Positions 18,001-21,000 of a DNA stretch of 59,395 nt are shown one piece after another. Source of the DNA: Spirochaetales bacterium (GTDB lineage Bacteria; Spirochaetota; Spirochaetia; Treponematales; UBA12059); contig JAFGJV010000014.1 of the NCBI GenBank assembly GCA_016928955.1, positions 70,014 through 129,408 on the forward strand, written 5' to 3'. Position numbers: made by a program. Position 1 is the stretch's first letter; every line of letters starts with the position of its first letter.

Positions 18001-21000
18001 CGCCTCGGCGGTCCGGCCGGACGATTGGCGCATGGATACAGACGCCTGCTCGGCGGCCGTTGTGGCCGTCTGGGCCAGCGACCCGAACCCCTCAATGGTG
18101 CCGCTGATTTCCTCCGTGCCCGCCGACAGCTCCTCCAGCTTGCCAAGGAGGCCGCCGAGCGTGGTGGCCACTTCCCTGAGTTCCGCCGACAGCTTGCCGA
18201 AATACGCGCCCGTGTCCGATCCGGCTCCCGAGGCCAGCTCGACCGCCTGCCGCGTGTTGGCCAGGAGCTTGGATATGTCGCCCGAGCCCCGGGCCGTCTC
18301 CTCCGACAGCTTGCGTATCTCTCCGGCGACCACGGCAAAGCCACGGCCAGCCAGGCCCGCGTGGGCCGCCTCTATGGACGCGTTCATGCCCAAGAGGTTG
18401 GTGCGGTTGGCCACGTCGCCGATCAGGGTGTTGAGCTCTTCCATGCGCTCGGTGGCCTTGACGATGCCGTCTATAGAGCCGTTGACGTCCGCTATGCGCT
18501 TGTCGCCGTCCTGGGCCAGGGCAGTCAGGGCCTCTATGCCGGCGCTCCGGGAGCCGGCGGCGTCGGCCAGCTCGCGCAGGGAGCGTATCATCTGGGACAC
18601 GGCAGCGCTGGCTTCAAGCACCTGGGTGGAATAGGCGCCCAGGGTGGCTATCAGGCGCTCCTGGCCTCCGGCAACCTCGTCCTCGCTGGTGGCGCTCAGG
18701 GCCAGCGCCTGGTCCAAGGCCACGGCGGCTGACGATTCCTCCTCGGCCACCGCGTTCAGTTCCTTGGCGGCGGCGAACAGGGCGTCCGCGGTTTCAGCAA
18801 GGCTGGCGCCAAGTTCTACGGCCTCGTCCTGGGAGCGCTGGACGGCGTCCGACATGGACCTGAACTGGCTGGCGGCCGTTTCCGAGGATTTCACGCACTC
18901 GTCCACGAGCGTCGCCTGCATATGCACGGCCGAGGACGTGAACAGGCCGCCTATGATCACCAGCACGCCGCTGGTGCCCAGCGACTGTATGGCCAGGGTC
19001 GTGACCGCTCCGCCCTCGCTGGCGCTGTGGATACCGTCGCTCAGGTACAGTATGGCAATGGCCGCCAGGTTGAGCGCCGTCAGAATCCAGATGTGGACGC
19101 GCTGGGTGGCCATGAGGCCGGCGGTGATCAAAAGGAAACAGCCGAGCGTGCCGAACACGTAGCATTCGTACACGCTGTCGTACGCGTCGCCCCAAATCGC
19201 AAGGAGCATGACCAGCCACAGGCCGTAGAGAAAGAGGGACGACGCCAGCTGGTAGCGCCCGCGGGCCACAAGGAACAAAACGGCCACGCAGAACAGGGCC
19301 AGCGCGCCAAGCATGGCGGCCACCATGCCCGCGCCCGTAAGCAGCATGAGCGCGCTGAGGATCACGGCAAAGACGCCTATCACCGCCGCCACGGGCACGA
19401 GTAGCCTGGCTTTTTTCCGGGTGCGTATATCAGCCTGCTCGTAGCGTTTCAGGAAAGGTTTCAGGAACCATTCGACGGGCTTTGACATGGACTCTCCTGG
19501 GCGGCGGTATGCGTGGACTCGCCCGGGACGGCAAGCCGGGTTGGACGCTTGTAGCCTTGGTGGGCGTTCTCCAAGTATGGTATGTTTTTCTGGCCAAGGC
19601 AACACGGCGCGTTTCCAAAAGCCGGGTTTTTAAAGCCATACTGCACACACTGGACGACGCGGAGGACAGACGATGGAAGAACTGAAACCGGGCATCCGTG
19701 GAGAGCGCAGCCTGGTGGTGGACGAAGAGCTCACGGCCAGGCATCTGGGTTCGGGCGGCGTGCCGGTGTACGCCACACCCATGATGGTGCTGGCCATGGA
19801 GGAGGCCGCCCTGAACGCGGTGGACCACCTTCTGAGTCCGGGCATGGCCACCGTGGGCTACCACCTGGATATACGGCACCTGGCGGCCACGCCCCTGGGC
19901 ATGCGCGTCACGGCCAGCGCCGAGCTTGTCAAAGTGGACGGCAGGATGCTCACCTTCAAGGTGGAAGCGCGCGACGAGGTCGAGCTCGTGGGCGAGGGCA
20001 CCCATGTGCGGGCGATCATAGACACGGAAAAGTTCGCCGCCAAGCTCAGGGCCAAGACCGGGGCATGACGGGCGGCCGAGCTTGCGTAGCCGGCCGGTTT
20101 TTCGATAGACTTGCCGGCATGAAGCCGATATTCCCGCGGTCAACGCGCCCCGCGCGACCCATCCTCAAGGAAGCCTGGTCCTGGCGACCGGCGGGTTCGC
20201 GCGCCGCCGTTGGCGGCGACGGGGCTTGACGGAACCCCGCGAGGCGACCCGCCCCTGTACTTCCGGCCGGCCGCCGCCACAGGCGGCCACGCACCCCGAC
20301 ATCCGGAGCTGAATCATGGAACGCAAACGCATACTCACCGGCGACCGGCCCACCGGCAAACTGCACCTGGGACACTACGTGGGCAGTCTGGCCAACCGCG
20401 TCCGACTGCAGGACCAGTACGAGTGCTTCTTCATCATCGCCGACCTCCACACGCTGACAACCAAGCCCGAAAAAGAGAACATAGAGGCCTTGCCCGACAA
20501 CGTGCGCTCGGCCGTGCTTGATTACCTGGCCTGCGGCATAGACCCGGCCAAGAGCGTCATCTACCTGCAGTCGGCGGTGCCCGAGGTGGTGGAGCTGTCT
20601 TTGTTTTTCCAGAACCTGGTCACCGTGCCGCGCTTGTCGCGCATACCCAGCCTCAAGGAAATGGCCCAGGGCGCCGGCATTGAGGAAATGCCCCTGGGGC
20701 TCCTGGCCTATCCGGTGCTCCAGGCCGCGGACATCCTGCTCCCGCGCGCCCACCTGGTGCCCGTGGGCAAGGACAACGTGGCCCACGTGGAGATCACCCG
20801 GGAGATAGCCCGCCGCTTCAATTACCTGTACGGCGACACGCTCCCCGTGCCGGACGTGATGGTGTCCGAGTACGGTTCCCTGGTGGGCACGGACGGCAAC
20901 GCCAAGATGTCCAAGAGCCTCAACAACGCGATTTTCCTGTCGGACGACCAGAAGACCGTGCACAAGCGCGTTATGTCCATGTACACCGACCCCAAGCGCG

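Follow-up and report, generated by a model that had tools for sequence, protein, structure and literature searches.

The leader of trpS in this Spirochaetales bacterium is, on comparative sequence evidence, very probably a ribosome-mediated tryptophan attenuator and not a leader that binds tryptophan, tRNA-Trp or tryptophanyl-tRNA synthetase (TrpRS). The stretch CUGGUCCUGGCG, which the initial annotation had taken for the invariant end of a small hairpin, was found to be kept as the Trp-Ser-Trp-Arg codons of a 36-codon upstream open reading frame (ORF; 20119-20229), the middle codon of the Trp pair being TCC, TCA, TCT, GCC or GCA among loci. Because what is invariant is a pair of Trp codons within a translated upstream ORF, the signal would be read by the ribosome rather than bound by the RNA. 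Of the earlier proposal of a non-coding sensor of TrpRS, tRNA-Trp or tryptophan, what stands is that trpS has a conserved and structured cis-regulatory leader, which is neither a T-box nor a known Rfam family; the sensor is replaced by Trp codons read by the ribosome. A supposed new ligand-binding RNA is in this way recast as a ribosome switch open to testing, with the caution for RNA-motif discovery that an 'invariant' stretch may be codons.

The window analysed was a 59,395-nt stretch of contig JAFGJV010000014.1, and the features of the locus are listed in Table 1. The gap upstream of trpS was confirmed at 247 nt (20069-20315), with a gene for a FlK-type thioesterase as its left neighbour, and the assignment of the downstream gene as trpS was supported by TIGR00233 (309 bits; cut-off 176.75). 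The -35 box TTGCGT scored under the threshold of a simple promoter scan. The AUG of the leader ORF lies 7 nt past the -10 box, and the ORF is probably translated leaderless. Genome-wide, a -10-like box preceded the AUG by 6 nt in 98 ORFs, versus 8-26 ORFs at spacings of 2-5 and 10-25 nt; leaderless starts are thus common here.

Table 1. Features of the trpS leader and flanking genes (positions in the window)
Feature	Position	Strand	Remarks
FlK-type thioesterase gene	19673..20068	+	gene upstream of leader; adjacency to leader not kept in relatives
-35 hexamer TTGCGT (predicted)	20082..20087	+	TTG box 17-18 nt 5' of -10 box in 19/19 loci
-10 hexamer TAGACT (predicted)	20106..20111	+	expected transcription start 20118-20119
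trpL-like leader ORF (protein P0001; 36 codons; probably leaderless)	20119..20229	+	
Sensor codons Trp-Ser-Trp-Arg	20176..20187	+	Trp at 20176-78 and 20182-84
P1 5' strand of junction	20190..20200	+	begins 5 nt past second Trp codon
P2 arm	20202..20218	+	variable in length
P3 arm	20220..20239	+	loop holds leader stop codon (20227-20229) and CGGA motif resembling trpS Shine-Dalgarno
J3/1 linker N-N-A-G	20240..20243	+	A and G conserved
P1 3' strand	20244..20253	+	
C-rich tail, candidate Rho loading site	20254..20304	+	26 C / 13 G
Shine-Dalgarno GGAG of trpS	20305..20308	+	
trpS, tryptophan-tRNA ligase	20316..21377	+	sole copy found in genome

The proposed three-way junction close upstream of trpS was recovered at 20190-20253, with 62 nt between its end and the start codon. 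Its covariation was also upheld: double changes were detected in 10 of 20 pairs in a MAFFT alignment of 16 sequences, a level reached by none of 500 shuffles, and in 13 of 20 pairs in an alignment of 30 distinct rows fitted to the structure, although the sequences behind the junction and ORF counts are related and the counts for that reason overstate independence. When the structure was slid along the alignment of 16, only 39-48% was paired, compared with 87% for the true placement. The folding energy of the leader alone was ordinary (z -0.21). As the initial annotation had stated, no Rfam family describes the element: there were no matches at the gathering threshold within the window, the best score for the leader was chrB-a (13.6 bits, E 5.4), and the leader fell below the gathering threshold of the covariance models of the Rfam Trp leader families. 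A T-box has a Stem I with a specifier loop and an antiterminator bulge in which UGGN pairs with ACC; the leader gave no Rfam T-box match, and the letters 3' of its UGGCG vary freely across loci. The GGCGGG/CCCGCC closing helix is not fixed in sequence: it covaries in a second family (f56). Across the two families the junction core bases are conserved and the helices covary.

Translation of the ORF is indicated by its frame. In 19 of 19 anchored loci, exactly one promoter-linked AUG was found within 130 nt, always in the Trp frame and at 24-93 nt; unlike another frame count and a leader rule, both circular with respect to frame, this test does not presuppose an in-frame start. Locus L050, with a G-U variant in the P1 3' strand, was left out of this set and read separately, and it fits the ORF and frame pattern together with the other held-out model matches (L035, L040 and L041). 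Among 148 pattern matches, a promoter-linked AUG was detected in 28, all of them linked to trpS and many from the same genomes as the 19-locus set; the only remaining trpS-linked locus (L222, the 29th) is truncated where its contig ends. None of the 119 other matches had such an AUG. The leader stop fell inside the junction in 24 of 24 loci in the Trp frame, versus 6 of 24 in each other frame. The frame was maintained across length changes of 24-126 nt and retained where the start signal alternates between leaderless and Shine-Dalgarno (SD)-led. The interval from the first Trp codon to P1 was gap-free in 31 of 31 aligned rows. Against variation in the middle codon, the peptide and P1, the Trp codons stay invariant, and locus L025 has three Trp codons; in the N-terminal parts of the leader ORFs, one Trp codon was counted among 503 codons. 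A second, LVLATGG-like reading frame over the motif was rejected as unconnected to the promoter AUG. We take LVLATGG to be a stretch of nucleotide-binding enzymes, and the likeness therefore yields false matches such as L052.

In the mechanism we propose, transcription would start at the AUG of the leader ORF, with leaderless translation suggested by the conserved spacing, and the comparative evidence shows a constant spacing between the two Trp codons and the junction. When charged tRNA-Trp is scarce, a ribosome would stall with a Trp codon in its A site and its leading edge just 5' of P1, and would also cover a part of the leader that could otherwise pair with the G-rich P1 strand; the junction could then fold and sequester the C-rich strands, leaving trpS to be transcribed and translated. 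When tRNA-Trp is charged, the ribosome would reach the stop codon inside the junction and melt P1, leaving the C-rich 3' strands and the tail unpaired and untranslated, and Rho would terminate before or early in trpS. The predicted probability of P1 was above 0.5 in 18 of 24 loci with the ribosome stalled at the first Trp codon; once the ribosome was placed at the stop, it fell below 0.5 in 23 of 24, partly by construction of the mask. Since P1 still exceeded 0.5 in 14 of 24 predicted ensembles without a ribosome, the OFF state would depend on timing. The leader shares with leader-peptide attenuators (i) a start signal of its own; (ii) in-frame cognate codons; and (iii) a structure predicted to depend on ribosome position. 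For a competing helix between the Trp segment and the P3 5' strand, 23 of 24 loci offer 8-9 of the 9 pairs, above shuffles; only 1 of the 9 covaries, a level reached by 89 of 500 shuffles, most f56 loci retain just 6-7, and the helix was rejected as a nested alternative, being energetically unfavoured in about 20 of 24.

For the output, we give about an even chance to Rho-dependent termination on the C-rich tail, which would be the most likely partner of the ribosome sensor. No intrinsic terminator was found on the + strand, and a classical trpL-type attenuator was rejected, as no conserved terminator hairpin with a U-tract competes with the antiterminator. The G+C hairpin in the tail (20269-20288) is without a U-tract, and a U-run before the SD of L002 is missing in its close relative L247. 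A rho gene is present in the genome. The tails hold 434 C to 224 G in 19 loci and 307 to 205 in 12 f56 loci, and 18 of 19 exceed the 90th percentile of 647 SD-led leaders of this genome, a comparison in which short tails include the P1 strand; as a sign of a Rho site, this C-richness is suggestive only. The tails of L004, L010, L023 and L024 are only 29-32 nt long, some tails carry a hairpin, that of L028 is unskewed and that of L251 begins G-rich. Attenuators of this type, in which an upstream ORF controls Rho by restructuring the leader, are established (PMC12360218); a C-rich, G-poor untranslated stretch in a genome with rho, as found here, is a weak criterion for them.

More tentatively, the same ribosome sensor may act on translation: the CGGA(G) of the P3 loop would be a decoy that forms a pseudoknot with an anti-SD segment of the tail and thereby keeps the ribosome-binding site of trpS open, while in the OFF state, with the junction melted, the tail segment would pair with the SD and any Rho effect would be polarity. 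The tail segment UUCCG (20261-20265) is able to pair with either partner. Cognate loop-tail pairing was better than swapped pairing (P = 0.003 for 19 loci; P = 0.0001 for 23 de-duplicated), with compensating cases in L025, L012, L023 and L028; however, the windows were picked after inspection, and the test failed both in 7 diverged f56 loci absent from all models (P = 0.87 versus swaps and 0.62 versus shuffles) and across the 12 of 14 f56 loci that could be anchored, L270 and L271 being left out (P = 0.58). Opening of the binding site was predicted to be easier with junction plus pseudoknot (5.5 versus 6.3 kcal/mol; 11 versus 5 of 24; P = 0.04), but it was unshifted without the pseudoknot (P = 0.83). 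Precedents exist in the LEU element and mycobacterial polycysteine ORFs; nonetheless, tail-to-SD pairing was no better than with shuffled tails (-5.9 versus -5.5 ± 0.4), and no conserved SD-sequestering helix was found in L022, L025 and L028.

Less likely again is a terminator-free attenuator that joins both outputs, whose ON state would be a tertiary-folded junction with an SD-mimicking loop and a pseudoknot on the tail; one stalled ribosome would hide the Rho site and free the trpS ribosome-binding site, with TrpRS possibly a second input. If true, this would combine leader-peptide attenuation with a riboswitch-like fold and would have no described precedent among spirochaetes. We consider it improbable that, beside the ribosome sensor, a protein (TrpRS or another factor) binds the junction with its unpaired A-G linker and stabilises or destabilises it. 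The junction core is conserved over two families amid covarying helices, beyond what a plain antiterminator needs, yet tertiary packing would explain the linker bases equally well, and the alignments contain no conserved CCA anticodon-like loop.

Direct binding of tryptophan, tRNA-Trp or TrpRS by a non-coding leader, with an incidental ORF, is strongly disfavoured: a compact covarying fold before trpS that matches no Rfam family would suit it, but not a frame kept in 19 of 19 loci and through 24-126 nt of length change, a stop within the junction in 24 of 24, a middle codon that varies where the Trp codons do not, or a switch between leaderless and SD-led starts with the frame kept. Very improbable too is a TnaC-like arrest peptide whose nascent chain senses free tryptophan in the ribosome tunnel. 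The first Trp often follows a P-x-G/E-S/A motif and sits at codon 21 in 13 of 19 loci, but it ranges between codons 9 and 43, the upstream peptide is unconserved, the stop lies 9-75 nt past the first Trp, the promoter-to-Trp distance in f56 stays at 51-65 nt though the peptide shortens, and induction of trpS by excess tryptophan would be physiologically implausible. An equally slim prospect, a terminator or RNA-stability element serving the upstream gene with no tie to tryptophan (e.g., an exonuclease-blocking junction with a pseudoknot), brings to mind the topology of viral exonuclease-resistant RNAs but leaves the Trp codons unexplained, the upstream genes vary by locus while trpS is constant, and RNase J was not found in the genome (0 of 1; 99.5% complete).

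The ribosome-mediated attenuator favoured here is a known kind of control, leader-peptide attenuation of trpS, in this case probably built without a classical terminator hairpin. The classical attenuators of E. coli, trpL and pheST (Rfam Trp_leader), are alike in tandem-like Trp codons, a W-R motif and a stall-dependent choice of structure, with P1 presumably in the antiterminator role; unlike them, the spirochaete leader lacks a conserved U-tract terminator and an Rfam match and probably has a leaderless start. The LEU element of actinobacterial leuA and the mycobacterial Ms5788A polycysteine ORFs also combine a leader peptide with conserved structure (a pseudoknot in LEU) and no terminator, and Ms5788A is leaderless; their sensor codons pair with the downstream SD, whereas those of the spirochaete do not pair with it, and the predicted SD switching is weak. 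Lopatovskaya et al. reportedly surveyed attenuators across bacteria in 2010 and may list this leader. The idea that control of trpS without a T-box would be a new solution was overturned, as leader-peptide attenuators of trpS are described for Streptomyces in PMC1262725 and PMC8079986. These sources give S. lividans trpL2, S. avermitilis trpS2 and S. coelicolor trpRS1 a short Trp-codon ORF before the synthetase gene, and S. lividans trpL2 is leaderless, as the present leader probably is, and likewise has hairpins but lacks a U-rich stretch (PMC8079986). Compared by architecture, the Streptomyces leader has one Trp codon in 13 residues and the spirochaete leader W-x-W in 20-45 residues plus a covarying three-way junction. 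The Streptomyces target is, by the title of Vecchione and Sello (2010), an auxiliary, antibiotic-resistant TrpRS gene under leader-peptide control, and the spirochaete target is the only trpS copy found. Synthetase-gene attenuators without a terminator are a mechanistic gap in actinobacteria too. In Salmonella mgtA/mgtL and corA/corL and E. coli tnaC and speFL, the position of the ribosome on an upstream ORF likewise refolds the leader, by which a Rho site is covered or exposed (PMC12360218); their signals are Mg2+, free Trp or ornithine and their targets transporters or catabolic genes, compared with charged tRNA-Trp, an aminoacyl-tRNA synthetase and a presumed role for Rho here. In Deinococcus deserti, synthetase genes including cysS are preceded by leader peptides that start at a 5'-AUG, and the main text of that article contains no occurrence of trpS (PMC4007540). 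A literature search of partial coverage returned (i) no spirochaete or junction-based leader-peptide control of trpS; and (ii) no report of leader-peptide attenuation or widespread leaderless translation in free-living spirochaetes, to which the present analysis would extend both.

The placement of the element directly before trpS was borne out, with trpS the next gene in 29 of 29 model matches of at least 58 bits among the 148 pattern loci; the genes upstream of the leader differ among loci. Its supposed restriction to one family was not, as it also precedes trpS in f56, where the junction sequences covary and the Trp codons remain: 5 of 36 f56 genomes matched model R1 and 8 of 69 model R2, and 14 of 30 f56 trpS loci carry the Trp-pair ORF. 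An own AUG start (SD-like or short-leader) was read in 6 of 6 parsed f56 loci, and in 14 of 14 f56 loci without the element the promoter lies 8-41 nt from trpS, i.e., the leaders are short. The element was found in none of 150 class genomes outside the two families, none of 78 genomes from four further families of the order and none of 28 trpS loci of other families. No junction with other amino-acid codons was found, the models yielding one match per trpS copy, though such a junction could escape them because they include the Trp stretch. Among the leaderless short ORFs of the same genome (21 of 59 listed with their downstream gene, judged by eye), no other clear codon run was seen before a synthetase gene. 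A quick TrpRS tree, in which many forks are open, mixes loci with and without the leader in one supported clade, so repeated loss of the leader is likely; the tree has 10 changes of leader state, of which the starred branches require only 2, with L278 wrongly labelled 'none', its promoter lying beyond the sequence read. About 40 natural variants, with their covarying structure, leaderless/SD-led switch, natural deletion allele (L009) and probable repeated losses, make the output step directly testable.

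The gap between the FlK-type thioesterase gene and trpS was found to hold the three-way junction claimed in the initial annotation, with its three helices (P1, P2 and P3) placed as listed in the table. With 16 loci aligned by MAFFT, both-side changes were detected at 10 of the 20 junction pairs, a count reached in 0 of 500 shuffles, and double changes at 13 of the 20 in a structure-fitted alignment (30 distinct rows). When the partners were slid as a control, 39-48% of cells were paired, compared with 87% for the junction pairs. The folding energy of the leader was not unusual for its own G+C content (z -0.21), and no Rfam match was found, in agreement with the annotation; Rfam family membership was rejected.

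Features of the trpS leader and of two further proteins in the window (window coordinates)
Feature	Position	Strand	Remark
Gap	20069-20315		between FlK-type thioesterase gene and trpS
Leader ORF	20119-20229		contains Trp-Ser-Trp-Arg
Three-way junction	20190-20253		P1, P2 and P3
P1	20190-20200/20244-20253
P2	20202-20218
P3	20220-20239
176-aa protein	17280-17810	+	membrane-looking, no Pfam match
516-aa protein	23180-24730	-	secreted-looking, no Pfam match

The stretch preceding the junction, described earlier as invariant, is conserved, but it reads as TGG-TCC-TGG-CG, the Trp-Ser-Trp-Arg codons of a leader ORF, a part that had been overlooked. The leader AUG lies 7 nt downstream of TAGACT, with TTGCGT another 18 nt upstream, a spacing that in sequence is the signature of a putative leaderless mRNA. 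An unbiased scan of all frames, given 20 loci of which 19 could be anchored, identified exactly one promoter-linked AUG in 19 of 19, always in the Trp frame and 24 to 93 nt upstream of the first Trp codon. The leader ORF reaches its stop codon ahead of the junction end in all 24 loci; for each of the two alternative frames the figure is 6 of 24. In f56, a second family of the same order, P1 differs by paired changes, P3 polarity can be flipped, the middle codon may be TCT or GCA, AUG-to-Trp distances run from 33 to 126 nt, and in several cases the leader ORF follows a short purine-rich leader and begins 13-19 nt past the -10 box; the frame and the Trp codons are nonetheless kept. Thus, judged from these comparisons, the most conserved feature of the leader is its Trp codons and not its RNA letters.

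Individual loci depart from this layout. L261 has a very long, branched P2 arm (AUG-to-Trp distance 126 nt), and in f56 L272 and L273 have W-A-W-R leaders with, by eye, a long hairpin in place of a clear junction. L009 (genome G022) is a natural deletion allele: about 160 nt upstream of trpS, the 5′ strand of P1 has been lost together with the Trp codons, while the promoter, AUG and P3/P1 3′ half are kept, and the leader ORF now enters trpS out of frame.

Among 29 trpS loci of the family whose upstream DNA was read, 16 carry an ORF with the Trp pair; L005 is cut, L009 is internally deleted, and 11 are without the element. Pattern scans of genome and metagenome collections returned 148 loci, of which the 29 scoring at least 58 bits with the model all lie directly upstream of trpS, as the annotation had it. 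A promoter AUG was in frame in 28 of these 29 (the remaining one is cut by a contig end) and in 0 of 119 chance matches; among the 13 trpS-linked records showing a title, 11 name spirochaetes and 2 just a bacterium. Of two covariance models, R1 matched 19/42 family genomes, 5/36 f56 genomes and 0/78 genomes from four other families of the order, and R2 matched 8/69 f56 genomes (the five R1 loci plus three more), all eight preceding trpS and reading W-S-W-R. The element is therefore not restricted to one family, contrary to the initial view. Of thirty f56 trpS loci read without a model, 14 have the leader (8 of these missed by the models), 14 have a promoter immediately upstream of trpS, and 2 lie on cut contigs. 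The element was not found in the 150 other class genomes searched or in 28 trpS loci of other families. Because loci with and without the leader are intermixed inside one supported clade of a quick TrpRS tree, the sequences suggest an old element, lost several times. TrpB exceeded the family cut-off in 33 of 42 family genomes and in none of the proteins of the present genome (99.5% complete), a probable tryptophan auxotroph, so the leader is present in likely auxotrophs and prototrophs alike. The G028 assembly has two trpS copies (contigs C99 and C221; L003, L035), each with its own leader variant, reflecting duplication or a mixed bin. In two family genomes without the leader, the TrpRS encoded at G004:C206 (43% identity) and at G036:C41 (38%) is of a divergent type or a second one.

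The spacing from the first Trp codon to P1 is free of alignment gaps in 31/31 aligned rows, and P1 begins 5 nt past the second Trp codon. Since a ribosome covers ~11-13 nt counted from the first P-site base, one waiting at either Trp codon would end at the P1 foot, and a further step would invade P1. When the ribosome was stalled at the first Trp codon, predicted P1 probability was >0.5 in 18/24 loci, and at the second in 16/24; when it was placed on the stop codon, the probability was <0.5 in 23/24, which follows in part from how the ribosome was masked; the junction is thus best read, on these predictions, as the ON conformer. Without a ribosome, the upstream C-rich leader is predicted to capture the G-rich P1 strand in 17/24 loci before its partner is made, yet in 14/24 P1 prevails once the leader is complete, so timing would matter. 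The Trp stretch is complementary to P3, but the nested helix that the two could form was mostly not favored and was rejected.

No conserved intrinsic terminator was found in the tails inspected, the tail being the stretch between the junction and the trpS Shine-Dalgarno. These tails are C-rich (434 C versus 224 G in 19 loci; 307 C versus 205 G in 12 f56 loci) against a background skew near zero. The present genome has rho, and an RNase J family match was not found in its 99.5% complete sequence. That a uORF ribosome can restructure a leader and so hide or expose a Rho site is well documented, with mgtA and corA among the examples (PMC12360218). Given the missing terminator, the C-rich tail, rho and this precedent, Rho-dependent termination was ranked first as the output, at roughly even chances. 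The main rival is a translational output, in which the P3 loop, whose CGGA(G) resembles the trpS Shine-Dalgarno, pairs with a tail segment; cognate loop-tail pairings were better than swapped ones (p 0.003; p 0.0001 in a second test), but this advantage failed in a held-out diverged set (7 loci, p 0.87), tail-to-Shine-Dalgarno pairing was no better than shuffles, and the predicted accessibility gain was small (0.8 kcal/mol; 11 versus 5 of 24 loci). A small CCC-loop-GG(G) hairpin, followed by an A/C-rich single strand, recurs between the junction and the Shine-Dalgarno (L214, L215, L235, L251, L257, L260, L262, L266, L271, L274, L289) and is a possible pause hairpin.

The trpS leader probably acts like a leader-peptide attenuator, showing the three hallmarks of that class that sequence comparison and folding prediction can address. 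The initial annotation was borne out in part in its observation and supported in part in its interpretation: trpS does have a conserved structured leader, but the signal reader is very probably a leader-peptide attenuator with Trp codons instead of an RNA binding TrpRS, tRNA(Trp) or tryptophan. Unlike the classical trpL type, of which it is hence not a member, it lacks a terminator; T-box and TnaC-type peptide identities were also rejected. Non-T-box control of trpS is not the new solution once proposed, as leader-peptide control is already published for Streptomyces; a candidate attenuator upstream of trpS2 (PMC1262725) and a leaderless trpL2 without a U-stretch (PMC8079986) are described, and the references of PMC4787780 include a paper whose title concerns an auxiliary TrpRS gene under ribosome-mediated attenuation. 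Leaderless sensor ORFs are known in mycobacteria (bioRxiv 10.1101/834739) and Deinococcus (PMC4007540). The literature searched (PMC8632094 included, in part; most subscription journals and supplements outside scope) yielded neither a spirochaete attenuator nor a three-way-junction Trp attenuator. Present in two spirochaete families, the element is best read as a Trp attenuator of the housekeeping trpS that lacks a terminator, is mostly leaderless and has a conserved junction at its core. A survey by Lopatovskaya and colleagues, reportedly broad, could list this leader.

Leaderless genes look common in the present genome, where a -10-like box lies 6 nt upstream of the AUG in 98 of 2461 long ORFs and 7, 8 or 9 nt upstream in 34, 41 and 36, against a flat background of 8-26 at other spacings; with an added TTG box, spacings of 6-9 nt gave 48, 15, 19 and 18 ORFs. 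In several relatives trpS itself looks leaderless (L014-L016, L053, L058, L265).
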